In this document: piece after piece, positions 970 to 51,280 of the stretch
Position numbering within the stretch: position 1 is the first letter of the stretch
Layout: every line of letters starts with the position of its first letter
Made by a program: the position numbers and the translations under genes
Assembly (NCBI GenBank): GCA_017962605.1
Contig: JAGCUY010000084.1
Span: 1-51,280 of the forward strand
Length of the DNA: 51,280 nt
Direction of reading: 5' to 3'
From: Kiritimatiellia bacterium
GTDB lineage: Bacteria > Verrucomicrobiota > Kiritimatiellia > RFP12 > JAAYLN01
Notes under the pieces: model-generated
Told to the model about the DNA's origin: nothing
Database searches by the model: none
The model's input: the letters and a program-made list of their open reading frames with translations, nothing else

Positions 970-1998
970 ATGAATGAATCAACCTTGTCAGACCCCGGCA
1001 AAATGACCACCGCATTCGAACTTGCCGACCGAATCATCGGCGGCGGCGAGCCAGCCACCGCCGAGGAACTCTTAGACCTTCTCCGCAACGCCCCGCGCGC
1101 CGAGCTCCACGAGGCCGCGCACCGCGTCACCGCCGCCTGCGCGCCGCGCCGTTTCGACTTCTGCGGCATTGTGAACGCGCGCGCCGGCCGCTGTTCGGAG
1201 AACTGCAAGTGGTGCGCGCAAAGCGCCTACTGGGAGACGGGTTGCGAAATCCACAGCTGGATTGGCACGGAGGCTTGCGTCCGGGCCGCCGCCAATGCCG
1301 AGGCGAACGGCGTCGGCCGCATCGGCATCGTCACAAGCGGGCGGGCCCAGAGCCCGGCCGACATCGACGCGCTTTGCGACGCCCTTCGCGCCATGAGGCG
1401 CGAGACGCGCATCCACCTCTGCGGTTCGCTCGGCCTCCTGTCGCCATCCGACATCGCGCGGCTGAAGGAGGCCGGCCTTGAACGCGTCCACTGCAACATC
1501 GAAACCGCCCCGTCGCACTTCGGCGACCTGTGCACCACGCACACGCAGGCGCAGAAGCTCGAGACGCTGCGGGCCGCGCGCGACGCCGGACTCGAAATCT
1601 GCTGCGGCGGCATCATCGGCATGGGGGAAAGCGACGAGCAGCTCGTCGAGTTCGCCCTAGCGCTTGCCGAAATCGCACCGGCCTCGATTCCCGTGAACAT
1701 CCTGCACCCGATTCCGGGAACTCCGCTGGGTGCGCACACGCCGCTGCCCGTGGAGCGAATCCTCGACTCCATAGCCATCCTGCGCCTTGCCAATCCCCGC
1801 ACGCCCCTGCGCTTCGCCGGCGGACGCGTGCTGCTTTCGGATGATGACGCTCGCCGCGCCATCTTCTGCGGCATCAACGCCGGCATCGCCGGACCGCTCC
1901 TCACCACACCAGGCGCCAACTACGCCGACGACCGCGCCCTCGCAACCGAAGCGGGCTACGCCGTGGGCCAGGAATTACGCTATGAACTCGAAAGATAA
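970..1998 (+). CDS. bioB: Biotin synthase BioB (radical SAM)
   Basis: The CSENCKWCAQS CxxxCxxC radical-SAM motif matches BioB CPEDCKYCPQS. HCNIETAP corresponds to YNHNLDT, CCGGIIGMGES to CSGGIVGLGE, and SIPVNILHPIPGTPL to SVPINxLVxVxGTPL. Confidence 0.75.
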   Translation: MNESTLSDPGKMTTAFELADRIIGGGEPATAEELLDLLRNAPRAELHEAAHRVTAACAPRRFDFCGIVNARAGRCSENCKWCAQSAYWETGCEIHSWIGTEACVRAAANAEANGVGRIGIVTSGRAQSPADIDALCDALRAMRRETRIHLCGSLGLLSPSDIARLKEAGLERVHCNIETAPSHFGDLCTTHTQAQKLETLRAARDAGLEICCGGIIGMGESDEQLVEFALALAEIAPASIPVNILHPIPGTPLGAHTPLPVERILDSIAILRLANPRTPLRFAGGRVLLSDDDARRAIFCGINAGIAGPLLTTPGANYADDRALATEAGYAVGQELRYELER

Positions 1999-17129: not shown

Positions 17130-18106
17130 AGCGCTGCGGATTCACCATGATCGAGCTGCTGATCGCAATCGCCCTAACCGCGACGATCGTCACCGCCAGC
17201 ATCGTGGCCTTCTCCACCGCCAGCCGCATCTGGCGCAATGGCGCCGATGCCGCCGACGCCATCCACCACGGCGACTACGTGATGGAGCAACTGGCCTCCG
17301 CACTCCGCTCCGCATACTATCCCGACGCCACCCAGCCCAGCTCGCAGCACGGCATGGTCCTGGTGAACGACGGCAACGAAGACGAGGCCCACGACTCCCT
17401 CTCATGGGTGAAGTTCGGCTCGGCGCTCGTCGGCCGCAACTCCGGCATAGCCGACTCCCCGCACCGCATCGTCGTATATACTGTGGAAGAGGGCGAGGAG
17501 GATGACGAGGCGCTGGCCGAGGGCGGGCTTGTCGTCAAGGCGTGGCGCCTATCCGCGCAGATCGAGGACTTCGACCCCGAAGACGAGGAATACGTCAAGC
17601 CGCGCCTCCTCATGCCCGACGTCCTGGCCCTGGACTTCAAGGTCCTCGACCCAGAGGGCAACCTCGCGGAGGGGAAAGACCCCGTGCCCGACCAAGATGA
17701 CTTCGACGAGCAGGGCGGCTTTGAGTGGATTGACGAAGACTGGAAGGACGACTATACCAACCGCCTCCCCTACGCCGTGGTGGCGACCCTCTACCTGAAA
17801 CCGTCGGAGAAAGGCGCCGAGCCAATCGCGCTGCGGCGGCTGATCACGCTGCCCACGGCACCGCTATCGTGGCGCGACAAGGGCGCCGCCGGCGGCGACA
17901 CCGAAACCAGCGGCAACGAATCTGCTAACGGCAAAAACAAGAACAAGAACGAGGATGCCAACGGGAACAAGAACAAGAACGGCAACAGAAACAACGGAAA
18001 CAATGGCAACGGGAACGGAAACAACAACGGAAACAGGAACAACAACCCCAGCGAGAGAATGAGGAAGGATGACACGCGCTCTGCCAAACAGACGGGCGAG
18101 ACTTGA
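17126..18106 (+). CDS. Pseudopilin (GspJ-like) with prepilin-type N-terminus and an Asn/Gly/Lys-rich low-complexity C-terminal tail
   Basis: CGFTMIELLIAIALTATIV is present. Start was chosen at ATG 17126; the 5' part of the 17069 ORF is the 3' end of the previous gene. The tail GNGNKNKNGNRNNGNNGNGNGNNNGNRNNN is encoded by an AAC-rich repeat tract (17920-18060). Confidence 0.55.
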   Translation: MKRCGFTMIELLIAIALTATIVTASIVAFSTASRIWRNGADAADAIHHGDYVMEQLASALRSAYYPDATQPSSQHGMVLVNDGNEDEAHDSLSWVKFGSALVGRNSGIADSPHRIVVYTVEEGEEDDEALAEGGLVVKAWRLSAQIEDFDPEDEEYVKPRLLMPDVLALDFKVLDPEGNLAEGKDPVPDQDDFDEQGGFEWIDEDWKDDYTNRLPYAVVATLYLKPSEKGAEPIALRRLITLPTAPLSWRDKGAAGGDTETSGNESANGKNKNKNEDANGNKNKNGNRNNGNNGNGNGNNNGNRNNNPSERMRKDDTRSAKQTGET

Positions 18107-37911: not shown

Positions 37912-40782
37912 ATGAATTCAAAACATCAAGCGTTTTTCGATTCCGACTATGCCAATCCACCTTCGATGGATTCAATACGGACTATTGGTTCCATCACTAC
38001 AGAGCATTCTACCAAATCTCTTGGCTCCGTAGATCAATACGAACTGTTGCGAAAACTTGGCGGCGGCGGTTTTGGCGTGGTGTATCTCGCGCACGACACC
38101 TCTGGCGACATAGACGTCGCCATAAAGACGCTTCACCCACTCCTAAAACGTAACACGGAGGAGATGGAAAAACTTCGGGACAAGTTCAAACTCGTCAGCA
38201 ACCTGGCACATTCGAACATCGCCTCGCCGCTCGTCCTTCTCCCTTGCCGCGAAATTGCAATCCACGACCCAGAAGCCCGCAGGGAACTTGACCTTTCCCC
38301 GGGAGATGCGGTGATGGTCATGCGCTACGCCCCTGGCGTTACGCTATCCAAGTGGCGTAAGCAGTTCACCAATGGAATAGTGCCTTTCAAAGAGGTTTGC
38401 GAAATCGGCAAACAGGTCGCCTCTGCTCTTGACTACGCACATAGGGAAGAGCACATCGTCCACCGCGACATAAAGCCCGCCAATATCATGGTCGAAACGC
38501 AGGAAGGCGGGAAAATACGCATTCGGATTCTCGACTTCGGCCTGGCGGCCGAAATCCGCGCGTCTATGTCGCGCGTGTCAATGGAGACATGCGACACTTC
38601 CGGGACGCGCCCCTACATGGCGCCAGAGCAATGGAGCGGCCGTTTTCAAAATGGGAACACGGATCAATACGCCCTCGCGTGCGTCCTGTTCGAATTGCTT
38701 TCCGGCGCCCCTCCGTTTGCCGGAGTCTTTGAAACGGGCGACCCCGCAATCATGCGCTCGGCGGTCCAATCCGAGCCGCCGCCCACGCTCCCCGGTCTTT
38801 CACCGGCGGCAAACGCCGCTTTCGCCCGCGCCCTCGCAAAATCCCCCGACGCCCGCTTCCCCTCGTGCGAAGAGTTCATAGCAGCCCTTGGGAAAGCGCT
38901 TTTCGAAGCGCCACCGTCTGGAGCAAGGCGTTTTTTCGACGCCGGGCGCTCATTCTTTGTCAACCGCAACTCCACCCGCCGCGACTCGTCTCCCACGGCA
39001 GATTCCGTCCATTCTGCCTCCACGACTAATTCAAACGCCCCCATAGACACACAGCCGCCGTCCGGGCCAGTCAAACCGCCGCGTCCCAAGTGGCTGCCGA
39101 TTGCGGCCGTCGCCGTAATCGTCCTTCTAATGTACTTCCTTTTCAGGGGAAGCGATGCTCGTCCAGTGGAAGAACCGACACCAGATGTAACTGTAAATAT
39201 GCATTCGGAGGAGAACGATAAATCATATCTCATCGAAATAGAGAAGAAAGAACGTCTCGAAAAATGGAAAGATGAAGCGAAGATCGTTTCCGAAAGCATC
39301 TCCTACTATTCAAAATGGACTGAACATCCCTACTCAAGCCGCTTTGAAAGGGCTCACGATGCGATAAAGACCATATTGGCCGCCACTACGGCGCCAACCC
39401 CGATGGCCGAGGCCGAAAAAGCCATTGAAGACTTGAGGTCTCTAAAATCATGGATGGATGAAAAATCCAAAATCCGCGAAGACTTTGAAGCCCGATGCCT
39501 CGATGTGGAAACAAAACTTGGCAAGCTTGTGAAGGACGAATACGCGGATGCTGCGGCGGACGTTATTAAAATAGCGCAAGACTCGATTGCGCAGGCAAAG
39601 GGGATTCGCGATTCCGGCGATTACGATTCGGCGCTCAAAGCACTGGCCGAGGCAAACGGACTTATGCCCCGTGCTGAAGAAAAGATTAATGATAAAAGAA
39701 GAGCCAACGAAGAAGCGCTTGCCCAATTGACCGAGATAAAGCGGGACGCCAGTGCTAAAATCCAGGGAAGCCAGAATTTGCTTGCCAGATGGAATGACAA
39801 GGCGTGGTCGGATCGCGCCGAAGCCATCAAGAGTGCCGCCACGACAATCGTCCGCAGTTCCGCCCCCGAAGATATCCCGGCTGCAAAAAAGGCGCTTGAT
39901 GCCATTTCTACTGAGGTAAAGTGGATGAATGACAATAGCGTTTCGCGTCAGACGCTCGACAATGTCGAAAAAGAGATGCGCGAACTTCTCAACGGGCTTT
40001 CGCCAACCGTCCGCAAATACGCCAACAGGGAGTTCAGCAACGCAGAAAGTCTCCGCAATGAAGCCGAAAAGCTTCGAGAGGCGGGGAAATACCCCGAATC
40101 GGCAGAGAAGAGCCGCAAGGCGAAAGAGAATTACAGTAGAGCCAAAAATATGGCTGACTATGTTGAAAAAAGGCTGACACGCATTGAAATCGCGAAAAGG
40201 GCGGGGGCGGCCGACGCAGCCGCCATGTCCTGCTATGAATGGGGGGACATGGTCTGGAAGGCTAAAAAGGACGAAGTGGAGGCGGCGGCGAAAAAACTGG
40301 CAAAATGCGCCGATGCCGACGATGCCGAAAATGCCGAAAATCTTAGAAACAACATTGGAGAAGCGCTTTCATGGGCGAAAAAGAACGACTCTGTCTGCCG
40401 GCAAATCGACGACATGCAGAAACAACTGGATGCTCTCAACAAGGAAGCTAAAAGGATCGACATAGCTGGCATTCGGCCGGTAAGCGAATCCAGCGCCATC
40501 GCTCTCTTGGAAAAATCCTCTGAAAACCGCAAGACCGGGAAATTTCCCGAAGCCAAAGCGGATTTAGAAAAGGCAATCGAGATTTTGACAAAGGCCGTTT
40601 CTGAAACAAAGGCGGAGCGGGCGGCAAGAGGGTTGAGGCTCGCGCGGGATTTCGCCAACCAAGGTAAATGGCGCGAATGCCTTGATGCTGCGAACTTCGT
40701 TATGGAGAACTGGGACTCAACAAACGCCGAGGTGCAGGCGCTTGCCAAAAAAGCCCATGAGAACCTGCATTCCCTTAAGTAA
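37912..40782 (+). CDS. Ser/Thr protein kinase with one TM and a ~550-aa C-terminal helical-repeat (coiled-coil/TPR-like) domain
   Basis: Kinase motifs are YELLRKLGGGGFGVVYLAHD, VAIKTL, HRDIKPANIMV, ILDFGLAAE and TRPYMAPEQ. The TM is WLPIAAVAVIVLLMYFLF. The C-terminal module GKWRECLDAANFVMENWDSTNAEVQALAKKA is shared with the kinase-FGE paralogs. Confidence 0.85.
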   Translation: MNSKHQAFFDSDYANPPSMDSIRTIGSITTEHSTKSLGSVDQYELLRKLGGGGFGVVYLAHDTSGDIDVAIKTLHPLLKRNTEEMEKLRDKFKLVSNLAHSNIASPLVLLPCREIAIHDPEARRELDLSPGDAVMVMRYAPGVTLSKWRKQFTNGIVPFKEVCEIGKQVASALDYAHREEHIVHRDIKPANIMVETQEGGKIRIRILDFGLAAEIRASMSRVSMETCDTSGTRPYMAPEQWSGRFQNGNTDQYALACVLFELLSGAPPFAGVFETGDPAIMRSAVQSEPPPTLPGLSPAANAAFARALAKSPDARFPSCEEFIAALGKALFEAPPSGARRFFDAGRSFFVNRNSTRRDSSPTADSVHSASTTNSNAPIDTQPPSGPVKPPRPKWLPIAAVAVIVLLMYFLFRGSDARPVEEPTPDVTVNMHSEENDKSYLIEIEKKERLEKWKDEAKIVSESISYYSKWTEHPYSSRFERAHDAIKTILAATTAPTPMAEAEKAIEDLRSLKSWMDEKSKIREDFEARCLDVETKLGKLVKDEYADAAADVIKIAQDSIAQAKGIRDSGDYDSALKALAEANGLMPRAEEKINDKRRANEEALAQLTEIKRDASAKIQGSQNLLARWNDKAWSDRAEAIKSAATTIVRSSAPEDIPAAKKALDAISTEVKWMNDNSVSRQTLDNVEKEMRELLNGLSPTVRKYANREFSNAESLRNEAEKLREAGKYPESAEKSRKAKENYSRAKNMADYVEKRLTRIEIAKRAGAADAAAMSCYEWGDMVWKAKKDEVEAAAKKLAKCADADDAENAENLRNNIGEALSWAKKNDSVCRQIDDMQKQLDALNKEAKRIDIAGIRPVSESSAIALLEKSSENRKTGKFPEAKADLEKAIEILTKAVSETKAERAARGLRLARDFANQGKWRECLDAANFVMENWDSTNAEVQALAKKAHENLHSLK

Positions 40783-41723: not shown

Positions 41724-44185
41724 ATGGACATTGGCGACAATTCTCTTGGCAGCGCAGCAACCATGGCCGAAGGCAACGCCGCAGTCCAGTTTATGCCTTA
41801 TGACGAGCCGTCGCTCGGCTCCGCGCCAACGCTACCTGGCGGCGCAGGGCGGCGGCCCAATCGCCCCGCGCCCGGAGACGACCTTCTTGGGCGCTATACG
41901 GTTCTCGAAGAACTGGGCCAGGGCGGCATGGGTGTGGTTTACAAGTGCCTCGACCGCGAAGGCGGCATCGAGGTCGCCATCAAGTGCCTTCCACCCGAAG
42001 TGACGCGGATCCGGGACGAACTGGAGGAGATTCGGGAAAACTACCAGATAGTCGCCCGCCTTCACCACTCGTCGATTTCCGGTCTGCGCTACTTGGAGCG
42101 CGATTCGGCGAGCGGCGACTACTACGTGGTGATGGACCTCGCGGAAGGCGAGGATCTTTCGCGCATCCTACGCCGCCGGCGCGGGAGGCCAATGCCGCTC
42201 CATGAGGCTTTGGACATCCTGCGCCCCGTTGCCGCAGCGCTTGACTACGCGCATGGGGAAGGCGTCCTGCACCGCGACGTTAAGCCGGCGAACGTGAAAG
42301 TTGAGGCGCTAGGTTGGGAATCTCGCGCAGAGACGCAGAGACGCAGAGACGCAGAGAAGGTGGGGCGAGCTCTCCGAGCGAGCCGCGCAAAAAGGGCGGT
42401 AGAGGCTGGCTTGTAGCGGCACTGCTGGCGCTCGTCGTTGGCGGAGGCATTTGGTTTGCCGTGGGAAATAATGGCGAGCCGCAACTGGGAGGGGCAACGT
42501 CCACGTTGCCCGCTCCGCCGGCTGTCGAAGCGCCCACCGCCTCGCCCACCACCCCGGCCAGCCCGGAAGTCCCGCCACACCAGGCGGGGCCGTCTGCCGC
42601 ACCTGTGGCAGCGGTTCCGCAGAACAAGCCAGAGCCGGCGCCAGTCGCATCTGCTCCTGTCCTCCCCGCCGCACCGGCGGATGATGCCCCGCTTGGCGAT
42701 TGGGAGGATTACCTCCTATCGCTCAAGGAGCGGCGCCAGTCGCTTTTGGACGAGGGCTATCCTGAAAACGGCGAACAGGTCAAGGCAGTCGCCGCGGCGA
42801 TTGCAGTCGCGGACGAACGCATCGCCGCTATGACGGCGAGCATTGAGGAAATCGAGCGCAATGCCCGCGTCGCCAAGGCGCACAAGGACGCCGAACGCGC
42901 CTCCAACCGCTCCCGCATCGCCGAGATCAAACGAAATGTCGGGCGCAAGGTCGCCTCCGCCGCGAAATACGCTGGCGTCGATGACAAGCTTTTCGTGGGA
43001 CGGCGTAAGACCATTGCCGACGCCACGAACCAGCTGGAGAGGATTTCCGACCCCGACGAAATCGAAACCGTGAAGAGACTCCGCATCGATATCGACGACG
43101 CCGTGGACTGGATTCTCCGCAACGGCCCCGCGCGGGAGGGGATCGTCTCGCAGGAGGAGGAACTCAAGGCACTGGGGCCAGAGTTGGAGCGCGTTGGCGC
43201 GGCCAGGCTGGCGGCGCAGTCATTCAACGCCGCGAGGCGCCAGGAGCGCGAAAGCGCCAGTTTGCGGGACAAGGCCGACTACGAAGGCGCCGCCGGGGGC
43301 TATCGGCAGGCGAAGGCCCTCTACGAAAAGGCCATCGCGGAGGCGAAAACGGCACAGGCTGAAGCGTGCGTGGTGCGCGCGGAGTGCCTGAAAACATCTG
43401 GCCTTTGGGAGGATTGCCTCAAGGCCGCCGACGAGGCGCTTGAATGGGATGCCGGCAACGCGAAGGCGCAGACGCTGAAACAGGAGGCGCAGAATGCCAT
43501 CGACGCCGAGCGCAAGGCGAAGGAAGAGGCCGAGCGAAAGAAACGCGAGGCCGAGGAGGCGGCGAGGCGGGATCTGGAGGCAAAGGCCGCAGCCGAGAAG
43601 GCGGAACGCGAACGGCAGGAGCGTGAGCGCCAGGAGTCCGAGCGCAGGAAGCGCGAGACTGAAGAGGCTGCGCGGACACCAAGGGCGGGAGACCTCAAGG
43701 CCGTTGCTGTAGGCTCGCAGACGATCCGCCTTCACTGGTGCCCCGCCGGGTCGTTCATGATGGGTAGCCCGTCAACCGAGAAGGACTGCGGCAGCGACGA
43801 AACGCCACAGCATCTCGTGACTCTGACGCAAGGCTTCTGGATGGGCGAAACTGAGGTGACGCAAGGGTTGTGGGAGGAGGTCTTGGGGAACAATCCAGCC
43901 AATTTTAAGTCCGGCGACGACTACCCCGTGGAGCGCGTCTCATGGGAGGACTGCCAGGAGTTCATGAAGAAATTGAACGCCCGTTTTCCGCAATCCGGCC
44001 TCCGTTGGGCGTTGCCGACCGAGGCGCAATGGGAATACGCCTGCCGAGCTGGGACAACCGGCTCCTACAGCGGTTCGGGGCGTCTCGATGACATTGGGTG
44101 GTATGATGGAAATAGCGGGAGCAAGACTCATCCGGTGAAGCAGAAGCAGCCGAACGCCTGGGGACTTTTACTTCTTTGCACTTGA
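41724..44185 (+). pseudogene. Degenerate paralog of the Ser/Thr-kinase–TM–coiled-coil–FGE-sulfatase-domain family. It is frameshifted inside an octamer tandem repeat, lacks the kinase C-lobe, and its FGE domain is truncated where a DUF4143 ATPase cassette follows.
   Basis: Frame 0 (41724..42416) encodes the kinase N-lobe through HRDVKPANVKVE. After the (cgcagaga)x4 tract the homologous reading (GGASSPSEP...) continues in frame 2 (the 42314..44185 ORF). The C-terminus ends at PVKQKQPNAWGLLLLCT*, whereas the intact paralog continues GLYDMHGNVWEW.... Confidence 0.6.
42326..42357 (+). repeat. (cgcagaga)x4 octamer tandem repeat at the frameshift site of the degenerate kinase paralog. It is followed by the conserved core ggtggggcgagctctccgagcgagccgc (42359-42386).
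   Basis: The repeat and core were read directly. The intact paralog has 3 copies of the analogous cacagaga at 46312-46335, followed by a homologous core (46339-46364). Confidence 0.8.
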
Positions 44186-44336
44186 GAAAGGGTGCGCGAG
44201 AGATTCGTGCGTGAGCCTTTTCCTTTGGATTCTTGCCGAACGCGACGGCGGCAGCTTTCCCATTCTCGCCGATAAGATTTCCGCACCATAGTCTAGTGTG
44301 TTTGCGTAGCAGTTCGCTCCACCTATTTGGATATGC

Positions 44337-44424
44337 CAAAATCAAGTTTACTAGATTTTGGTAGGCACCAAAATCGAACTGCCTCGATTTTGGTATTGAC
44401 AAAAACGTCCATTTTTTGTAGTAT
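44337..44424 (+). promoter_or_regulatory. Array of four alternating CCAAAATC / GATTTTGG half-sites, including a 9-bp-stem hairpin gattttggtaggcaccaaaatc. The last half-site abuts a consensus sigma70 promoter (-35 TTGACA 44396-44401, 17-nt spacer, -10 TAGTAT 44419-44424) for the DUF4143 ATPase gene.
   Basis: The motifs were read directly. The region is AT-richer than its flanks. Confidence 0.5.
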
Positions 44425-44433
44425 GGCCTCACC

Positions 44434-45639
44434 ATGAAACGTGTTTACGAATCGATGCTGCGCGAGCATTTCGCATCGAACAGGCAGATGGCCTTTGTCT
44501 CAGGTCCACGACAGGTGGGCAAGACTTCCCTCGCCGAGAGCGTCCTGCCTAATGCGACGCTCCTGAACTACGACAACCAGTCGCATGCCCGGATCATCGC
44601 CGCCGGGCCCGAGCGCGTCGCCGAATTCGCCGACCTTGCAAATCCATTGAAGTTGGCCCAGGGCATTGTCTTCGACGAATTGCACAAGTTTCCAAAATGG
44701 AAGGGCCTTTTGAAAGGCTTCTTTGACGTTCACGGGAAGGGCTTGAAAGTGGTCGTGACCGGGAGCGCGCGCCTCGACATCTACAAGCGCGGGGGCGACA
44801 GCCTCATGGGGCGCTACTTCCCTTTCCGCATCCACCCGCTTGGCATAGGCGAACTCGAAGGGGGAGACTTGGACACGGAGGGCTTTTTACGAAAGCCAGG
44901 GAAGCCATCGCGTGAAGCCCTCGACCAACTCCTGCAACTAGGCGGATTCCCAGAGCCGTTTTTAAAAGGGAATGCCCGTTTCCGCAACCAATGGAACCGC
45001 ACCCGGCTGGAAAGACTATTCCGTGAGGACATTCGCGATTTTAGCAGGGTGCAAGACATTATCGGCATCCGCTCGCTGGCGTCTCTTGTCGCGTCGCGGG
45101 TTTGCGGGGGTGTGAACTACGCCGCAATGGCATCGGATCTTTCCGTGGCTCCGGACACGGCGAAGTCCTGGCTTGGAATACTCGAATCGGTCTATTACTC
45201 CTATTCCATCACCCCGTGGTTCAGGAATGTCGCCAATTCCATCAGGAAACAGCCAAAGGTCTATTTGTGGGACTGGAGCGCTTTGCCAGATGGCGGCGCG
45301 AAGAATGAGAACTTCATCGCCTCGCAGTTGCTGAAGGCGGTTCACTGGTGGACTGACACCGGACTTGGCGATTTTTCATTGCACTATTTGCGCGACAAGA
45401 CTGGCCGGGAGGTCGATTTCGTTATTGCGCGGGATGGTGTTCCATTCATGCTTGTCGAATGCAAGTCGTCGATGAAGGAAACGTTGAGCCGGACACTGGA
45501 GGAGGTGCAGCGGCAGATGGCGGTCAAATACGCCTTCCAAGTTGGAATGGACGGCGAGTCATCTGACCTCAACCCCTTTGACTACGAGGGGATGGCCATA
45601 AAAGTTTCCGCATTGGATCTCCTGAAAATGCTGATCTAA
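44434..45639 (+). CDS. AAA+ ATPase of the AAA_14/DUF4143 family with a C-terminal PD-(D/E)xK-like motif
   Basis: The N-terminus is MKRVYESMLREHF...VSGPRQVGKTSL (Walker A). The C-terminal D...EVDFVIARDGVPFMLVECKSS follows the restriction-endonuclease-like D/ExK pattern. Confidence 0.8.
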   Translation: MKRVYESMLREHFASNRQMAFVSGPRQVGKTSLAESVLPNATLLNYDNQSHARIIAAGPERVAEFADLANPLKLAQGIVFDELHKFPKWKGLLKGFFDVHGKGLKVVVTGSARLDIYKRGGDSLMGRYFPFRIHPLGIGELEGGDLDTEGFLRKPGKPSREALDQLLQLGGFPEPFLKGNARFRNQWNRTRLERLFREDIRDFSRVQDIIGIRSLASLVASRVCGGVNYAAMASDLSVAPDTAKSWLGILESVYYSYSITPWFRNVANSIRKQPKVYLWDWSALPDGGAKNENFIASQLLKAVHWWTDTGLGDFSLHYLRDKTGREVDFVIARDGVPFMLVECKSSMKETLSRTLEEVQRQMAVKYAFQVGMDGESSDLNPFDYEGMAIKVSALDLLKMLI

Positions 45640-45697
45640 CCGATGGCTTGCCTCCTACCGCTCCAGACAGGAATCTGATAGAATAAAAGCCAGCCGC

Positions 45698-47779
45698 ATG
45701 GACTATGACGAAAACTCCTTGAACTCTGCACCGACGATGGTCGGTGGCCTCAATGGTAGGGCGCGCTCGCCGAGCGCGCCGCAGGGCAACGCTTCCCTTG
45801 GCTCCGCGCCGACGATGCGCGGGCGCACGACGCCGCGCGGGGAACGCCTGCGCGTCGGCGACTCGCTTCTTGGCCGCTACACCGTGCTTGCCGAGTTGGG
45901 CGAGGGCGGCATGGGGGTCGTTTACAAGTGCCTCGACACCGTCGGCGGCATCGAGGTCGCAATCAAGTGTCTGCCGCCGGAACTCTCGCGCAACGAGTCG
46001 GAGATGGAGGGCATCCGGGAGAACTACGCCATCGTGGCGCGCCTCCATCATTCGGCGATATCCGGCCTGCGGAATCTGGAGAAGGACCCCGACTTCGGCG
46101 AATACTACCTTGTGATGGATCTTGCCCAAGGCGAGGACCTATCCACGATCTTGCGCCGCCGGCGCGGCACGCCGATGGCGCTCGGCGAGGCGCTGGACAT
46201 TTTGCGTCCGCTTGCCTCGGCGCTCGACTACGCCCATGGCGAAAGAGTCCTGCACCGCGACGTCAAGCCTGCGAACGTGAAGGTGGAGACGCTGGTCGCC
46301 GGAAAATCTCACACAGAGACACAGAGACACAAAGAAGGCGGGGCGACTTCTTCGAGCGAGCCGCATGTTCAGCTGCTTGACTTCGGGCTGGCGGCGGAGG
46401 TGCGGTCGTCGATGTCGCGCATGTCGCTGCGCGGCCACGCGGGTTCGAGTGGAACTCCGGCCTACATGGCGCCTGAGCAGTGGGAGGCGAAGCGGCAGAG
46501 CGCGGCGACGGATCAGTATTCGCTGGCGGTGATGGCCTACCAGATGCTCGCGGGCTACCTTCCCTTCGACGCCGATGACATGGCGCTGCTGAAGGACGCG
46601 GTGCTGACGCGCCCGCCGGAGGAGATCGAAGGCGTTCCCGCGCACGTGAACGCGGCGCTGATGCGGGCGCTCGCGAAGAACCCGAAGGAGAGGTTTGCAA
46701 GTTGCGCGGAGTTCGTGAAGTTTCTGCAAAAAAGAGAAACGATATCTCCGAAGCCTCCGCAGGATCAGCCTGATGGAATGGCGGACGATGAAGATTATGT
46801 TGAACTACAGGAGATGGCTGGAGGCGCGCTTCAAAAAGCGGAAAAAATAAGAAGGTATCTTGCCAAACCGCATCCTCTTCCCCCTCGTCGCGGCGCCTGG
46901 CTATGGTGGGGAGCGGCATTAGTGGCTATTGTTTTTGCACACAAATCCATTTCACGCATTTATTGGTCATGGGTCAATGCTCGTCACGCCGTTGAGCAAG
47001 CGAAAGCAGAATGGCAGAAGATGGCACACAAGACCGGCGAGAGCAAGGTCGTTTGCGTCGGTTCGCAGGAGATCGCGCTTCGCTGGTGTCCAGCTACGAC
47101 GAGTGAAGACTGGAAGAGAATTTCTGGCGGTAAAGACTTCTTTATGATGGGGTCGCCATCCTCCGAAGAGGGACGAGACAACGATGAGACGCAACACCGT
47201 GTGACACTCACGAAGGGCTTTTGGATGGGCGAGACCGAGGTGACGCAGGGTTTGTGGAAATATGTCATGGGGTCGAATCCTTCATATTTCAAGTCTGGTG
47301 ACGACTATCCAGTCGAGCAAGTCTCATGGTACGACTGCCAGGAGTTCCTGAAGAAGCTGAATGCCCGCTCTCCACAATCCGGCCTCCGCTGGGATCTGCC
47401 CACCGAGGCGCAATGGGAATACGCCTGCCGGGCCGGAACAACCGGTATGTATGGCGGCTCGGGGCACCTTGACGACATGGGCTGGTATGATGGGAACAGC
47501 GGGAACAAACCCCGCCCTGTAAAGCAGAAACGACCTAATGACTGGGGCCTCTACGATATGCACGGCAATGTCTGGGAGTGGTGCCAGGATCGGCATGGGA
47601 ACTATCCGTCTGATGCCGTGACCGACCCAACCAGCGCCGCATCTGGCGACTGCATCCTACGAGGCGGCAGCTGTTGGTTCGCCTCTCGGATCTGCCGCTC
47701 GGCAAACCGTTACGGGCACGACCCTAGCCCCTGCGGCTGGGACGATGGCTTCCGCGTCGCCTTGGTTTCGGCTGATTAG
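45698..47779 (+). CDS. Ser/Thr protein kinase – TM – FGE-sulfatase (formylglycine-generating-enzyme-like) domain fusion, the intact paralog
   Basis: Kinase motifs are LGEGGMGVVYKCLD, VAIKCLPPE, HRDVKPANVKVE, LLDFGLAAE and TPAYMAPEQ. The TM is AWLWWGAALVAIVF. The FGE domain runs RWCPATTS...GFWMGETEVTQGLW...GLYDMHGNVWEWCQD...RGGSCWFASRICRSANRYG. Confidence 0.85.
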   Translation: MDYDENSLNSAPTMVGGLNGRARSPSAPQGNASLGSAPTMRGRTTPRGERLRVGDSLLGRYTVLAELGEGGMGVVYKCLDTVGGIEVAIKCLPPELSRNESEMEGIRENYAIVARLHHSAISGLRNLEKDPDFGEYYLVMDLAQGEDLSTILRRRRGTPMALGEALDILRPLASALDYAHGERVLHRDVKPANVKVETLVAGKSHTETQRHKEGGATSSSEPHVQLLDFGLAAEVRSSMSRMSLRGHAGSSGTPAYMAPEQWEAKRQSAATDQYSLAVMAYQMLAGYLPFDADDMALLKDAVLTRPPEEIEGVPAHVNAALMRALAKNPKERFASCAEFVKFLQKRETISPKPPQDQPDGMADDEDYVELQEMAGGALQKAEKIRRYLAKPHPLPPRRGAWLWWGAALVAIVFAHKSISRIYWSWVNARHAVEQAKAEWQKMAHKTGESKVVCVGSQEIALRWCPATTSEDWKRISGGKDFFMMGSPSSEEGRDNDETQHRVTLTKGFWMGETEVTQGLWKYVMGSNPSYFKSGDDYPVEQVSWYDCQEFLKKLNARSPQSGLRWDLPTEAQWEYACRAGTTGMYGGSGHLDDMGWYDGNSGNKPRPVKQKRPNDWGLYDMHGNVWEWCQDRHGNYPSDAVTDPTSAASGDCILRGGSCWFASRICRSANRYGHDPSPCGWDDGFRVALVSAD

Positions 47780-47998
47780 CGAGGTCCCGCACCATTTCAC
47801 GAATTGTGATAAATTTTCAGCAACCAAGGTTTTGGAAACGACACTTGCTGAAAAAGTTTTTTCTAAGCAAAGGCATAAGAAAATCGGAGTGTTTCCTATA
47901 CACCTCCCTACATGGCCACGTTCCTGGCGAACGCGAAGTTGAGCGATGTTTTTTGAAGTTTGAATCAAGAAGGGCTCCTGTCGTCTCTTTTGATAATC

Positions 47999-48007: not shown

Positions 48008-48016
48008 ACATGCCCC

Positions 48017-48116
48017 ATGGACCTTGACGAAAACTCCTTGAACTCAATGCCGACAGCCGCCGATGGGACGAGGTGGTCGTTGGCATTGAGTTAAGCGATT
48101 GTTCGTCGTAGTTCAT
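48017..48116. pseudogene. Two head-to-head 5' fragments of kinase-FGE family genes forming a ~100-nt imperfect palindrome. The plus fragment encodes MDLDENSLNSMPTA and the minus fragment MNYDEQSLNSMPTT; both stop after ~25-30 codons.
   Basis: Compare the starts of the full-length paralogs: MDYDENSLNSAPTM (45698) and MDIGDNSLGSAATM (41724). The plus strand reads ATGGACCTTGACGAAAACTCCTTGAACTCAATGCCGACA and the reverse strand ATGAACTACGACGAACAATCGCTTAACTCAATGCCAACG. They face each other across an ~18-nt centre. Confidence 0.55.
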
Positions 48117-48187: not shown

Positions 48188-49360
48188 CTATAGGGCACCG
48201 CTGATGAACTCGACATAATTGTCGCGTGAAACGCATCGCCATTTCGCTTCTGGATAGGAGTCGGCAAATATCTTCGGGCATTTGGCCTTGGCCGCCTTGA
48301 CGGGATTCCATTTGAACTCGTAGGCGGCAAGCCCTTGGTCGGATGATTCCTCAAGGTAGTCTATCTCGTTGGCGCCGTTCCCCTTTGTCCGCCAGAAGAA
48401 CGACTGGACATCACGCTCGGCCAGTTGGTTGCGCTTGATGCGTTCAGCAATAAGATAGTTCTCGAAAAGATGCCCTGTGTCCTCGCGGGCGTCAAGGGGC
48501 AGGTAGTTCCCAATCAGCGCGTTCCTGATGCCTGTGTCGCAAAAGTAGATTTTCCGAGCCTTCTTCAACTCGTTCCGCGCATTTCTCGAATACGCCGGGA
48601 GCCGGAACACGACAAAGGCCTTTTCCAGACGTTCGACATAGGACTCCACAGTCTCGTTGTCCATGCCGATCAAGTCGCCAACCTCTTTATATGAAACTTC
48701 GTTCCCGACCTGCAGGGATAGTGCCTTTGCCAGTTTTCCAAGTTTGTCCGAATTTTGCAGGTTCTTCCACTTGAGGACATCCTTGAAGAGATATGCCGAA
48801 CAAAGATTCTTAAGGACGCGTCGCCGCGCTGTGTCGGAAGGCGCCGTCGCCACGTCAGGGTAGGTGCCATAAAGGAGCCTGGTTTCAAGCATGTTCCTTT
48901 CGGAAACGGCACTCGTCAAACGGGCCAGTTCGGCAAAGGACAGCGTTGGCAAGACATATTGCTCCAAGCGGCCCGTCAGGGGTTCTCCAACTTCTTCCGA
49001 AAGCTCGAATGATGATGAGCCGGTCGCTACGATGCGAATGTCCTTCAAGCGGTCATGGATGATTTTCAAAACCAGGCCAATGTCGCTGATCTTCTGGGCC
49101 TCATCGACAAAAAGCGTCTTTGCCTCACCCATGATGGAGCGAGCCTTTTCGGGGGTCATGGTTTCGTATGCGAGCAGAGATCGTTCAGCAAGGACGTCTC
49201 CGGAAAGCACGGCAACGCCATCCTTCCTGATGGATTCGGCATCGAGGAGGTGTTCCACGAGAGTCGTTTTCCCCGTCTGGCGCGAACCATACAGGATTAC
49301 AACCTTCCGGCCTTGCAGCGCCTCTGCAAGCGCTCTTTCCAAATCTCTTTGCACATACAT
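48188..49360 (-). CDS. AAA+ ATPase of the AAA_14/DUF4143 family, third paralog
   Basis: Start was chosen at ATG (revcomp of 49358-49360), giving MYVQRDLERALAEALQGRKVVILYGSRQTGKTTLVEHLL; the ORF track extends to a TTG at 49381. The C-terminal GANEIDYLEE...AAYEFKWN is PD-(D/E)xK-like. Confidence 0.75.
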   Translation of the reverse strand: MYVQRDLERALAEALQGRKVVILYGSRQTGKTTLVEHLLDAESIRKDGVAVLSGDVLAERSLLAYETMTPEKARSIMGEAKTLFVDEAQKISDIGLVLKIIHDRLKDIRIVATGSSSFELSEEVGEPLTGRLEQYVLPTLSFAELARLTSAVSERNMLETRLLYGTYPDVATAPSDTARRRVLKNLCSAYLFKDVLKWKNLQNSDKLGKLAKALSLQVGNEVSYKEVGDLIGMDNETVESYVERLEKAFVVFRLPAYSRNARNELKKARKIYFCDTGIRNALIGNYLPLDAREDTGHLFENYLIAERIKRNQLAERDVQSFFWRTKGNGANEIDYLEESSDQGLAAYEFKWNPVKAAKAKCPKIFADSYPEAKWRCVSRDNYVEFISGAL

Positions 49361-49380
49361 GGGGAAAAACCTTTGACACA

Positions 49381-49433
49381 ATTATACATCAAACTTTTTG
49401 CGACTGCAACCGCAAAAAGTTGAAACTTTTTGC
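49381..49433 (-). promoter_or_regulatory. Minus-strand sigma70 promoter (-35 TTGCAG = revcomp of 49404-49409; -10 TATAAT = revcomp of 49381-49386; 17-nt spacer). A GCAAAAAG/CTTTTTGC hairpin (49412-49433) precedes it, and a third half-site copy (49394-49401) lies in the spacer.
   Basis: The motifs were read directly. The hairpin + direct half-site + promoter architecture matches that at 44337-44424, though the sequences differ. Confidence 0.45.
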
Positions 49434-49458: not shown

Positions 49459-51280
49459 TTATTGAACTGGAACCAAAGCAACGCGGACGCCCAGATTGTC
49501 GAGGCGGTAGCCGGGATCGAGCCCAAGCCGGGAGGCCGAACGGCAGCCGCGGGCGTCGTAGTACCACGAGCCCCCGCGGAACACGCGGAGCGAGCCGGAC
49601 GACAGCCCGGTCGGATCAGTCACGGTGCCGGACGGATATTTGCCATACCAGTCCTGACACCACTCACAAACATTGCCGTGCATATCGTAAAGGCCCCAGG
49701 CGTTCGCCTCATAGCTGCGCACCGGTGTCGTTTTTTGCTTGTAAGTTCCCTTACGCGTTGTCCCGCAGGGGTAATTGCCGTCGCAGTTCGCCTTGTCGCC
49801 ATTCAAGGCATTCCCCCAGAAATAGGCCGTCTGACTACCAGCCCGGCAGGCGTATTCCCATTGCGCCTCAGTCGGCAGCGCCCAGCAGAGACCAGATTGC
49901 GAGGATTGTGCGTTTATTTTCTTAAGGAACTCCTGGCAGTCGTTCCAGGAGACATTCTCCACGGGGCGCTGCGCAGAGGTCTTCCCGCCAAATCCAAGAA
50001 ACTTCCCGTCGAGGAAGTTTGATGGATTGTTTCCCATGACCTCCTCCCACAATCCCTGCGTGACCGGCGTCTCACCAAGCCAAAAACCATTTGTCAATAT
50101 GACTTCATGCAGCCGTTCATCTATATCTATATCTCGTCCCTCTTCGTCATCTGGACTGCCCATCAAAAAGAAGTCATGTCCTCCGGAAATCTTCTTCCAG
50201 GCAACGCTTGTCGTCGCAGGACACCAGCGGAAGTTCATTGAAACGCCCGGAGCGATTGTCACACTCTTTAATTCACCTGGCCTAGGGTCATTGGCATGGC
50301 GCTGCTCTTCTTCCTTTGTCTTTCGTGCCGCTTCCCTTCGCTCCGTTTCTTCCTTTGCCTTGCGCTCCGCTTCCTCGCGCGCTTTACGTTCCGCTTCTTC
50401 CTTTGCTTTGCGCTCCGCTTCTTCTCTGGCCTTGCGCGCAGCCTCTTCGCGAGCCTTGCGTTCTGTCTCCTCACGTACCCGCCTGGCTTTCTTCAAATCG
50501 CCCAGCGCAGATTCGGCGGCATTGAGGCTTTCTGCGGCGGCGGCGAAGCGGCCAAACTTGCAGGCCTCTTCGGCTATCGCAAGTTCGTCCTCGCCCTTGA
50601 CGACAAACTTAGCGAATTCCTTGTCCGTGCGGTCTTCAGCGGGAATCGCCTTAATTGCTTTTGTCAGCGCCAACTTGCGTCGCAGGACATCGGCCTCGGA
50701 AATGGCCGAAGACTGCGGCTCGCCCGGAGGACTCGCCCTACCATCCTGTCTCTGCGCCCTCTGCGCCTCTGCGTTAAAAGCCCTTTGCGGACTTTGCGGA
50801 CTTTGCGCAAGACAACTTTCCACAAACTCTGCACAACTTGCAAACCTCTCCTTCGGGTTCTTCGCAAGCGCCTTTTGCAACGCCGCGTTCACATGTGCAG
50901 GAATGTCCTCAATCTCTTCTGGTGCGTCGCGCTCAATCGCCGTCCGCATGATAATCGGATCGCCGGTCTCAAAAACACCGGAGAAGGGCGGCGCGCCGGA
51001 TAGCATTTCATAGGCGACGCAGGCAAGCGCATACTGGTCGGTGCGGCCGTCCTGCTTGCGGCCCAGCCACTGCTCAGGCGCCATGTAGGGCCGTGTGCCT
51101 GAAGTGTCGCCAGTCTCCGTCGAGATGCGCGACATCGACGAGCGTATCTCCGCGGCAAGGCCGAAGTCGAGAATACGCACGCGGATTTTGGAAGTGGCTA
51201 GTGCGAAGTGGTTAGTGGTTAGTTGCGGCTCGCCCGGAGAGCTCGCCCCACCATCACCTTTCAACTTTTCAACTCTCAAC
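49459..51280 (-). CDS. Ser/Thr protein kinase – coiled-coil – FGE-sulfatase domain fusion paralog, 5'-partial; the N-terminus lies beyond the window end
   Basis: The kinase C-lobe is ILDFGLAAEIRSSMSRISTETGDTSGTRPYMAPEQ. There is an EAERKAREE octapeptide repeat region. The complete FGE domain is present (GFWLGETPVTQGLW...GLYDMHGNVCEWCQD...RGGSWYYDARGCRSASR). Confidence 0.8.
   Translation of the reverse strand, partial: LRVEKLKGDGGASSPGEPQLTTNHFALATSKIRVRILDFGLAAEIRSSMSRISTETGDTSGTRPYMAPEQWLGRKQDGRTDQYALACVAYEMLSGAPPFSGVFETGDPIIMRTAIERDAPEEIEDIPAHVNAALQKALAKNPKERFASCAEFVESCLAQSPQSPQRAFNAEAQRAQRQDGRASPPGEPQSSAISEADVLRRKLALTKAIKAIPAEDRTDKEFAKFVVKGEDELAIAEEACKFGRFAAAAESLNAAESALGDLKKARRVREETERKAREEAARKAREEAERKAKEEAERKAREEAERKAKEETERREAARKTKEEEQRHANDPRPGELKSVTIAPGVSMNFRWCPATTSVAWKKISGGHDFFLMGSPDDEEGRDIDIDERLHEVILTNGFWLGETPVTQGLWEEVMGNNPSNFLDGKFLGFGGKTSAQRPVENVSWNDCQEFLKKINAQSSQSGLCWALPTEAQWEYACRAGSQTAYFWGNALNGDKANCDGNYPCGTTRKGTYKQKTTPVRSYEANAWGLYDMHGNVCEWCQDWYGKYPSGTVTDPTGLSSGSLRVFRGGSWYYDARGCRSASRLGLDPGYRLDNLGVRVALVPVQ
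50296..50485 (-). repeat. Imperfect 24-nt tandem repeat (~8 copies) encoding (E-E-A-E-R-K-A-R/K)n in the coiled-coil region of the minus-strand kinase-FGE gene
   Basis: Period 24 is visible as ...gcgcgctttacgttccgcttcttc / ctttgctttgcgctccgcttcttc / tctggccttgcgcgcagcctcttc / gcgagccttgcgttctgtctcctc. Confidence 0.7.
50714..50810 (-). repeat. Second internal copy of the core+SSR element in the minus-strand kinase-FGE gene. The core (50714-50743) is flanked by ctctgcgcc-type and ctttgcgga-type short tandem repeats (50744-50810).
   Basis: The coding strand reads gcgcaaagtccgcaaagtccgcaaaggg...cgcagaggcgcagagggcgcagagacagg + atggtagggcgagtcctccgggcgagccgca. It encodes QSPQSPQ...AQRAQRQDGRASPPGEPQ. 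Confidence 0.7.
51224..51280 (-). repeat. Third copy of the core+SSR element in the same gene, sitting between the kinase catalytic loop and the DFG motif. The core (51224-51252) is followed by ytttcaac octamer repeats that run to the window end.
   Basis: The coding strand reads gttgagagttgaaaagttgaaag + gtgatggtggggcgagctctccgggcgagccgcaacta. It encodes KLKGDGGASSPGEPQ. Confidence 0.7.

Follow-up and report, generated by a model that had tools for sequence, protein, structure and literature searches.

Within the window, which here means the whole 51,280-nucleotide stretch analysed (contig JAGCUY010000084.1 of a Kiritimatiellia bacterium), a gene for a Hanks-type Ser/Thr kinase joined to an FGE-sulfatase domain changes reading frame inside a perfect octamer tandem repeat, which raises the question of whether this repeat operates as an on/off switch or marks a gene that is being lost. 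The analysis indicates that the tract is probably a slippage frameshift fixed in a multiply damaged, decaying paralog of a birth-and-death cluster, and not an operating phase switch.

The octamer tract and its two reading frames

The tract, (CGCAGAGA)x4, is located at 42326..42357 (+) and was reported by Tandem Repeats Finder (TRF) with a period of 8, 4.0 copies, 100% matches and the consensus CGCAGAGA. The 32-mer that it forms is present a single time in the window, and 100 dinucleotide-preserving shuffles contained no copy of it, even at a tolerance of 3 mismatches. It is the sole perfect tandem of at least three copies with a unit of 4, 7, 8 or 10 nt within the 51 kb, and the sole further non-triplet tandem in the window is CCTGC x3 at 13367. 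In the protein, the tract falls within an insert that occupies the kinase's beta7-beta8 turn, after HRDVKPANVKV and ahead of the DFG motif. Upstream, ORF1 (41724..42416, +; 230 aa) encodes the kinase N-lobe, hinge and catalytic loop, with the motifs GQGGMG, VAIK and HRDVKPAN in its translation and a Pfam match to Pkinase positions 1-129 of 263, and it ends by reading the core element that follows the tract out of frame (VGRALRASR...) up to a stop. ORF2 (42314..44185, +; 623 aa) lies at -1 to the ORF1 frame; it reads repeat and core as ...ETQRRREGGASSPSEP and continues through a transmembrane helix, a Pro-rich linker and a long coiled-coil region into an FGE-sulfatase domain (Pfam positions 8-179 of 255). 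The two frames overlap by 103 nt, which are free of stops in both.

Homology to the intact paralog follows the ORF1 frame before the tract and the ORF2 frame after it (EGGASSPSEP vs EGGATSSSEP), so that the frame does change inside the four-unit array, as the first-pass annotation had stated. When the tract was rebuilt in silico, 0, 3 or 6 units gave a continuous ORF of 809, 817 or 825 aa, and 1, 2, 4, 5, 7 or 8 units led to truncation at 220-238 aa; the present allele thus stands one unit above the in-frame state, and dropping one unit fuses the frames opening at 41724 and 42314, again as had been proposed. The annotation was also correct in placing three in-frame units at 46312-46335 of the intact paralog (TRF; translation). 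The span it gave for the repeat, 42326-42386, holds for the tract, but 42362-42386 is a separate repeated 25-nt core outside the tandem array. The most economical origin of the frameshift would be the gain of one unit (from 3 to 4) by slipped-strand mispairing, shifting the frame by +8 nt. An origin in one step, by recombination of the loop core (GGASSPSEP) with a pre-transmembrane core (VGRALRASR) as in P0007/P0008, was rejected because the downstream transmembrane helix lies in the GGASSPSEP frame.

Further lesions and tract length in public assemblies

In the 817-aa ORF restored by a 3-unit allele, the Pfam matches reach from position 1 to 129 of the 263 in Pkinase and from 8 to 179 of the 255 in FGE-sulfatase, leaving both domains of the in-frame (ON) product partial. 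DFG and APE are absent from both ORF1 and ORF2, so that no complete Hanks-type kinase (PF00069) is encoded, and ORF2 likewise carries no full-length FGE-sulfatase (PF03781, ~255 positions). In BLASTP, the alignment of the restored ORF with the intact paralog ends at residue 219 and restarts at 633, and that with P0002 skips residues 177-396 of P0002; the product is without DFG, activation loop, APE, alphaF-alphaI and the C-terminal third of the FGE-sulfatase fold. The first break coincides exactly with the 3' end of the core at 42362-42386, which is therefore the junction of the C-lobe deletion, and the earlier remark that a missing kinase C-lobe argues partly for decay was borne out, everything from DFG onward being absent. 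On the 3' side, the homology of ORF2 to the intact paralog stops at about 44166, leaving the last ~72 FGE-sulfatase residues missing, and tblastn detected no remnant of these 72 aa downstream of 44166. An AAA_14/DUF4143 ATPase gene (44434..45639, +; identified from Pfam, composition profile and sequence) and its lower-GC upstream region (44166-44433) adjoin this truncated end, and the FGE-sulfatase C-terminus is lost where the ATPase gene now begins. Frameshift, C-lobe deletion and 3' truncation are thus combined in one gene, where at least two independent lesions were taken as the mark of a pseudogene. Its N-lobe is 68-69% identical to those of intact paralogs, and its architecture without a C-lobe was shared by no homolog examined. 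A fused protein of about 817 aa was not found among 752 homologs from 5.8 billion protein clusters, and the ORF1 protein cluster consists of 230-aa members, with proteins of other length or fused ORF1 proteins absent.

The first-pass annotation had proposed looking for length heterogeneity in the tract. Run on assemblies, that is, on consensus sequences in which minor 3- or 5-unit alleles within populations would be invisible, this check returned four units throughout: the tract has 4 units in 11/11 other public contigs carrying the locus (GCA_016295205.1, ERZ27256979, ERZ28653423, ERZ28653958, ERZ28018878, ERZ28653882, ERZ28018842, Logan SRR12529116, GCA_016282515.1, JGI 3300041004 and JAEEGL010873322.1), several of which may come from related samples. 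These contigs form two sequence versions with unlike flanks and 10-11 differing positions within the gene, and no copy-number variation between strains at 42326-42357 was seen in either; the haplotypes diverge by only about 0.4% in the gene, so the invariance spans a short evolutionary time. The second haplotype, L009, is without 44403-44973 and without the whole intact paralog. Every contig returned by tract-independent look-ups via ORF2 has the 230-aa ORF1, and a scan of JGI metagenomes (flank-gap-flank, 2-5 units permitted) yielded a single contig, whose degenerate copy has 4 units and whose P0003-type gene has 3, and no new tract allele. Substitutions between the haplotypes amount to 10 in 2.46 kb, too few for dN/dS; six are clustered within 43 nt, a patch for which no donor was found among the sequences compared. 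In ORF1, 5/6 fall at third codon positions and in ORF2 3/4 at first or second positions, numbers too small to weigh. Loss-of-function variants at the SNP level, among them E653*, L74* and K90*, are present in same-strain assemblies but were dropped as population-level inactivation because 15/16 same-strain differences are transversions, which indicates assembly or sequencing error.

Four units everywhere, together with two further lesions, point to ordinary gene decay and not to a working on/off switch. The first-pass annotation had suggested a possible phase switch of the contingency-locus type, which found no support in the constant copy number, the missing fused protein or the incomplete ON product. 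It had also named a constant four copies alongside independent lesions as the pattern of plain pseudogenisation, and this is the pattern seen, with the tract invariant in public assemblies and the C-lobe and FGE-sulfatase losses beside it.

As observations that speak against decay, both frames are still open in both haplotypes (ORF1 230, ORF2 623 codons) and the tract is still perfect; moreover, ORF2 started from TTG 42314 could in principle give a basic N-terminus and a transmembrane helix, a plausible signal anchor.

The intact paralog, the repeat module and cluster turnover

The degenerate gene belongs to a family in which a Hanks-type Ser/Thr kinase is combined with an extracytoplasmic FGE-sulfatase (SUMF1-like) domain at the C-terminus, present in Kiritimatiellae, Lentisphaerae and other PVC bacteria. 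Two further members in the window, at 45698..47779 (+) and 49459..51279 (-), show the expected Pkinase, transmembrane helix and FGE-sulfatase, whereas the degenerate copy is without the kinase from DFG to its end and without the C-terminal part of the FGE-sulfatase. The former, an intact paralog of 693 aa with both domains full (Pfam; translation), carries the homologous tract CACAGAGA CACAGAGA CACAAAGA at 46312..46335 (+; TRF and locus comparison), whose 3 units, 2 perfect and 1 imperfect, are read in frame. In ERZ27256979, this tract has 2 units instead of 3, and the gene is split into 224 + 455 aa; over 19,557 nt, this contig differs from the window by 0 substitutions and by one gap, the lost 8-nt unit. 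Octamer tracts of this type may thus be mutable and able to slip, one event having been observed among the five assemblies carrying that paralog.

The octamers form part of a composite module in which they are followed by the core GGGGCGAGCTCTCCGRGCGAGCCGC. The core element next to the degenerate tract, GGGGCGAGCTCTCCGAGCGAGCCGC (25 nt; 42362..42386, +), was defined by copy count, alignment and BLASTP, with 4 copies in the window vs 0 expected. The copy in the intact paralog (46340..46364, +) has 3 mismatches, and another lies in the beta7-beta8 loop (51225..51249, -) of the third kinase-FGE paralog, which runs off the window. This third paralog has a second module past its kinase domain (50715..50773, -), consisting of CGCAGAGG-type units plus core and read as AEAQRAQRQDGRASPPGEP; direct module copies can therefore bracket a kinase C-lobe, an arrangement found in this paralog as well as in P0007, P0008, P0009 and P0026. 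In the degenerate gene, the whole C-lobe may have been deleted by recombination between two such direct copies. By eye, the core copies in the window resemble a direct repeat, and some relatives (L025) have a 10-bp palindrome.

Across the kinase family, the module occupies the beta7-beta8 loop, the alphaD-alphaE loop and linkers, and its reading varies by protein in frame and orientation (GGASSPSEP, VGRALRASR or, in reverse, RLAGTARPT). Other kinases carry it in loops with about 3 octamer units, and a 9-nt unit, by which the reading frame is preserved, is frequent in related metagenome-assembled genomes (MAGs). The same DNA module stands in frame at non-homologous sites in many genes, as intragenic repeat elements do. 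In very GC-rich MAG contigs, long spurious ORFs in several frames blur coding vs intergenic placement. Rickettsia palindromic elements and other intragenic MITE-like repeats are known to insert in frame into protein-coding genes (PMC10969869), and the module resembles the Rickettsia elements in being a short sequence in many unrelated coding sites (surface loops, linkers) that is tolerated as an extra peptide. It differs from them in its length (about 50-60 nt vs about 150 nt) and in its core, which looks like a direct repeat GGCGAGC...GCGAGCC with no clear palindrome. No terminal inverted repeat or target-site duplication has so far been identified in it, and its mobility is suggested solely by a patchy distribution.

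Downstream of the intact paralog, a 5' end of a kinase gene (MDLDENSLNSMPT...; 48012..48054, +), present as a stub (48017-48055), is a direct repeat of 45693-45735, and these two repeats flank the paralog that the L009 haplotype is without. The kinase/FGE-sulfatase cluster may thus turn over by short-repeat recombination. Like frameshifted pseudogenes of birth-and-death families, the degenerate gene combines a frameshift with an internal deletion and a 3' truncation, among intact paralogs nearby, a gene stub and presence or absence of a whole paralog between strains. Unlike the usual pseudogenes of this kind, its frameshift lies in a perfect microsatellite of a dispersed module, which makes the mutational route unusually clear and potentially reversible. 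A literature search on Kiritimatiellae kinases, repeats or pseudogenes returned nothing.

Other readings of the locus and its significance

Apart from decay with a fixed slippage frameshift, the locus could be one product of a switch acting at the level of the family, in which the module would let intact paralogs, 45698-47779 among them, switch stochastically and the degenerate copy stayed off and then decayed. We consider this unlikely. The single 8-nt difference between ERZ27256979 and the window, and the modules with about 3 units in the loops of other kinases, are what such a switch would predict; however, plain decay would equally produce one loss-of-function deletion in a family with redundant members, the intact tract in which this one event in five assemblies occurred has two perfect units and one imperfect, and the frame-keeping 9-nt unit is common in related MAGs. 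In its fullest form, which is likewise unlikely, the module ([C(R)CAGAGA]n plus GGGGCGAGC...GCGAGCC core) would be a mobile mini-element tolerated in frame that seeds non-triplet, slippage-prone tracts in the surface loops of a large sensor-kinase family, so that individual paralogs of ruminant-gut Kiritimatiellae would be switched stochastically off and possibly on; the 4-unit copy would have remained off and degenerated, and the intact paralog with 2 units would be the switch caught in the act.

That the degenerate gene itself is an active contingency locus, OFF with 4 units and ON with 3 or 6, would demand a function for an N-lobe-only pseudokinase fused to transmembrane helix, coiled coil and only part of an FGE-sulfatase, and we regard it as very improbable. 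Its formal layout fits that of the SSR contingency loci of host-adapted bacteria, examples of which are the tetranucleotide tracts of Haemophilus influenzae, the pentanucleotide opa tracts of Neisseria and SSR-bearing hsd genes (PMC7383803): a perfectly repeated unit of a length not divisible by three sits within coding sequence, the frames on either side are open, a one-unit change toggles the frame, and a paralogous tract differs by one unit in one assembly. The published criteria also accept tracts of at least 3 units as candidates, a minimum that the present tract reaches. They put the switching rate of a 3-unit tetranucleotide tract very low, at 0.5-2 x 10^-6, and just four units would here imply low rates as well. 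In contrast to such loci, the tract shows no copy-number variation in the available assemblies (11 other contigs, two haplotypes), both domains of the ON state are partial, lacking the kinase and FGE-sulfatase parts described above, the fused protein is not on record, no homolog has the architecture, and the gene stands as a decayed copy in an array of redundant paralogs. In the same paper (PMC7383803), absence of variation between strains is treated as evidence against phase variation, and short hsdR SSR tracts that reach the length criteria and show no such variation are judged by the authors probably not to phase vary. The octamer tract resembles these hsdR tracts in having no more than 4 units, which in principle could be gained or lost, and the same copy number across the homologs examined; unlike the hsdR genes, which are intact and in frame, it is fixed out of frame in a gene with further lesions.

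Equally remote is a gene fission, in which the frameshift would have made a new shorter gene, with ORF2 expressed alone from TTG 42314 or GTG 42461 as a membrane-anchored coiled-coil protein. ORF2 is open over 1.87 kb, the TTG start gives a basic segment ahead of the transmembrane helix, and gene callers predict a product of 526-574 aa; against this, the GTG start of the gene caller falls past the transmembrane helix, the FGE-sulfatase domain is truncated (8-179 of 255) and no homolog has the ORF2 architecture, and the codon positions of the ORF2 haplotype substitutions, for what so few can tell, do not favour it either. Recoding within the 103-nt overlap, whether by programmed -1 ribosomal frameshifting or by slippage of transcription, would yield the fused protein from the 4-unit allele and seems still more far-fetched: the -1 relation of ORF2, the stop-free overlap and the run CAAAAAGGG at 42388-42396 would allow it, but no canonical X XXY YYZ heptamer occurs in the overlap, no Rfam family matches the window, the A run is a mere 5 bases long, the protein made would be just as crippled and the intact paralog needs no recoding. 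An assembly or sequencing artefact hiding a true three-unit tract can be practically dismissed, since, although short tandem repeats can be mis-assembled and the same-strain SNPs look error-like, 11 other contigs from different assemblers and projects have the 4-unit tract and its 32 nt are far below the read length and k-mers used (k141).

Decay with a fixed frameshift, presumably from slippage, is thus the reading to which we hold, with the gene probably without function. The stretch 41724-44185 would accordingly be annotated as one pseudogene, rather than as a 'protein kinase' and a 'SUMF1/EgtB/PvdO family enzyme'. A textbook contingency-locus layout is insufficient to call phase variation; such a call also requires a look at invariance between strains and at whether the ON product is intact. 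As it stands, the case is clear but ordinary, a decaying paralog in which a microsatellite frameshift has become fixed. Should the module prove mobile and its tracts mutable within populations, the signalling genes of an uncultured gut lineage would have in it a new source of on/off heterogeneity.

Octamer tract and reading frames

The tandem repeat of the degenerate kinase/FGE-sulfatase paralog is a perfect (CGCAGAGA)x4 array at 42326-42357 (TRF: period 8, 4.0 copies, 100% matches). Its 32-mer occurs once in the window, dinucleotide-preserving shuffling (100 replicates, up to three mismatches accepted) never gave it, and no other perfect tandem of an 8-nt unit with at least three copies is present anywhere in the 51-kb window. 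Two reading frames cover the degenerate copy: ORF1 (41724-42416; 230 aa), whose Pkinase profile match is limited to positions 1-129 of 263, and ORF2 (42314-44185; 623 aa, -1 frame), matching positions 8-179 of 255 of the FGE-sulfatase profile. The intact paralog (45698-47779; 693 aa) matches both profiles in full and carries CACAGAGA CACAGAGA CACAAAGA at the homologous site (46312-46335). Protein and DNA alignments place the homology to this paralog in the ORF1 frame before the tract and in the ORF2 frame past it, where ...VKVEALGWESRAETQRRREGGASSPSEP of the degenerate copy pairs with ...VKVETLVAGKSHTETQRHKEGGATSSSEP of the intact one. Rebuilding the tract in silico with 0-8 units gave a single continuous ORF (809, 817, and 825 aa) at 0, 3, and 6 units only. 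The first-pass annotation had described a frame change inside four octamers, an analogous in-frame tract of three copies in the intact paralog, and fusion of both frames (here an 817-aa ORF) on removal of one unit; TRF, the switch in homology, and the copy series show this description and its arithmetic to be correct.

Unit number and further lesions

The tract is quite probably a case of a known kind, in which a microsatellite shifts the frame of a pseudogene belonging to a birth-and-death family. Unit-number change does occur at these octamers. Contig L002 (ERZ27256979) aligned with 19,557 nt of the window without a mismatch and with one gap, namely one 8-nt unit lost from the tract of the intact paralog (3 to 2 units; 46312-46335 versus 14589-14604 in L002), which splits that gene into 224 and 455 aa. 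This direct evidence is the one observation that keeps alive the idea of a family-level switch by which intact paralogs would be controlled, but as a single event among five assemblies of that paralog it leaves such a switch rather improbable. Single-base differences between the window and the same-strain contigs L003-L007 (39868, 44654, 45965, and 13 other positions), including three nonsense changes (E653*, L74*, K90*), were not taken as polymorphism, since 15 of 16 are transversions and probably reflect assembly or sequencing error.

An active switch at the tract of the degenerate copy itself, a possibility raised by the first-pass annotation, is very unlikely. Exact-protein look-up with ORF1 retrieved ERZ27256979, ERZ28653423, ERZ28653958, ERZ28018878, ERZ28653882, ERZ28018842, Logan SRR12529116, GCA_016282515.1, and JGI 3300041004, and look-up with ORF2 retrieved GCA_016295205.1; the tract had exactly four units in every contig, the ORF1 look-up being biased toward this state because ORF1 exists in it only. 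A repeat look-up via ORF2 products, independent of the tract, returned the same contigs, with the 230-aa ORF1 upstream in each. A scan of JGI metagenome contigs (flank-gap-flank pattern, 2-5 units allowed) added one further record, also with four units. The fused 817-aa protein was found in none of 5.8 billion protein clusters, the best match being ORF2 alone (574 aa, 99% identity), and all members of the ORF1 cluster have 230 aa. Contigs L002-L008 share 99.9-100% identity with the window, and L001 and L009-L011 show 10-11 differing positions within the gene and rearranged flanks; in L009 the upstream genes are others, the DUF4143 gene has a 570-bp deletion, and the intact paralog is absent. 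As both sequence versions carry four units, this state is older than the flank rearrangements. Ten substitutions separate the two haplotypes, and six of these, five at third codon positions, fall within 43 nt of the kinase N-lobe (41891-41933); this cluster may be a gene-conversion patch, and no donor was found among the sequences compared.

Other lesions also weigh against an active switch. Aligned with the intact paralog, the in-silico fused protein matches over residues 1-219, ends at ...GGASSPSEP(R), and picks up again no earlier than residue 633, inside the FGE domain; against the family protein P0002, its N-lobe (23-193) corresponds to 5-176, after which the alignment skips to 319 against 397. 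The kinase C-lobe is missing, as the first-pass annotation had remarked: DFG, activation loop, APE, and alphaF-alphaI helices are gone, and the DNA homology stops precisely where a 25-nt core, GGGGCGAGCTCTCCGAGCGAGCCGC (42362-42386), has its 3' end. This architecture was found in none of the homologs retrieved. By what is established of the kinase fold, an N-lobe with its catalytic loop cannot be active as a kinase when the core of the C-lobe is absent, and therefore even the ON (in-frame) allele would encode a crippled protein. The FGE-sulfatase domain is also cut: homology to the intact copy stops at 44166 (...PNAWGL, then LLLCT*), with 72 residues lost, of which tblastn found no remnant downstream, where a lower-GC segment and then the DUF4143 gene follow.

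A tract invariant at four units, over a small divergence (~0.4%) and as the majority allele of assemblies from samples some of which may be related, together with these lesions, is what the first-pass annotation had itself named as refuting its phase-switch reading, which is not upheld. The arrangement is like that of SSR contingency loci, but two features that define such loci, copy-number variation between strains and a functional ON product, were looked for and are not seen here. Short, invariant SSR tracts are judged not to phase vary in PMC7383803, and the octamer tract matches the situation described there. Gene fission, with ORF2 functional by itself, is conceivable but improbable, the FGE-sulfatase domain being truncated. 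Programmed frameshifting, yielding the fused protein from the four-unit allele, is unlikely, with no slippery heptamer in the ORF1/ORF2 overlap and no Rfam match, and an assembly artefact behind the fourth unit is excluded by its presence in independent assemblies.

The kinase gene cluster

Exact window proteins are recorded as MBP5543612.1, MBP5543613.1, and MBP5543615.1 (MAG, Kiritimatiellae bacterium), and the homologs are kinase-FGE-sulfatase proteins in MAGs of Kiritimatiellae and Lentisphaeria. According to Pfam, the cluster also includes a 956-aa kinase (37912-40782), a third kinase-FGE copy (49459-51279, minus strand) extending past the window edge, and two AAA_14/DUF4143 ATPase genes (44434-45639, plus strand; 48188-49381, minus strand) interleaved with the kinase genes. 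The same alternation is seen in L002 (20210-20693) and in another MAG (L031, 155-1504). Upstream of the DUF4143 gene, 44320-44430 holds several CCAAAATC / GATTTTGG inverted repeats, operator-like in appearance. In one assembly, L006 (ERZ28653882), a 31-nt deletion (40314-40344) at a ATGCCGAAA x3 repeat frameshifts the 956-aa kinase gene. Low-complexity coding repeats occur in the third paralog (50331-50460; 24-nt period, an EEAERKAR-type coiled coil) and at 17932-18046 (AAC/AAG/GGC-rich units, 6-24-nt period). The heptamer AAGTCGA (x7.7; 2199-2253), inside a long ORF (1787-4198), is also scored as a 21-nt period with 97% matches, and this effective period preserves the frame.

Composite repeat module and proposed history

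Octamer tract, short spacer, and 25-nt core form a composite module, its units being C(R)CAGAG(R) and its core GGGGCGAGCTCTCCGRGCGAGCCGC. Four copies of the core lie in the window (0 expected), always within kinase-FGE paralogs: in the beta7-beta8 loops of the three paralogs and in the linker behind the kinase domain of the third, there preceded by CGCAGAGG-type units (module or core copies at 42326-42386, 46312-46364, 50715-50773 (-), and 51225-51249 (-)). HRD...DFG spacing was recognisable in 101 family proteins: the turn is of the canonical length of 10-11 residues in 73 of them and measures 15-17 residues in 15, and 13 carry inserts of 19-60 residues; several long inserts share the motifs GGASSPSEP or GGASRPGEP, TQRRRD or SHAESAE, and LVTRHSS. 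One DNA core, read in both orientations and at least two frames, encodes GGASSPSEP, VGRALRASR, or, on reversal, RLAGTARPT; each of these peptides is present in different members of the family, often right behind the kinase domain and ahead of the transmembrane helix. In other MAGs, the alphaD-alphaE loop holds the module with three octamer units (L025, 1871-1930) or one gene carries it twice (L031, 1865 and 2483), and in related rumen-type MAGs it has 9-nt units and stands at gene ends and between domains. It is also recorded in contigs L013-L021.

The ancestral full-length kinase-FGE gene would have held two direct copies of the module, one in the beta7-beta8 loop and the other past the kinase domain, ahead of the transmembrane helix; the window's third paralog and the family proteins P0007 and P0008 show this two-copy arrangement around the C-lobe. 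Recombination between these copies may have deleted the C-lobe, with the junction remaining at the core, an additional octamer unit would have shifted the frame, and rearrangement with the DUF4143 gene could have cost the 3' end, no order among the events being implied. Short-repeat recombination of this kind is seen elsewhere in the cluster: a direct repeat of 43 nt from the 5' end of a kinase gene (45693-45735 and 48012-48054) flanks the intact paralog, its second copy forming a 13-codon 5' stub (48017-48055; MDLDENSLNSMPT), and L009 has one copy of the repeat and lacks 45727-47994, with the intact paralog.

The composite module may be a candidate mini-element tolerated in frame, reminiscent of the Rickettsia palindromic elements, which are in-frame intragenic repeats (PMC10969869), its mobility here being only hypothetical. 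The octamer tract is no device evolved at this locus but one component of a short-repeat module that is dispersed and tolerated by kinase loops.
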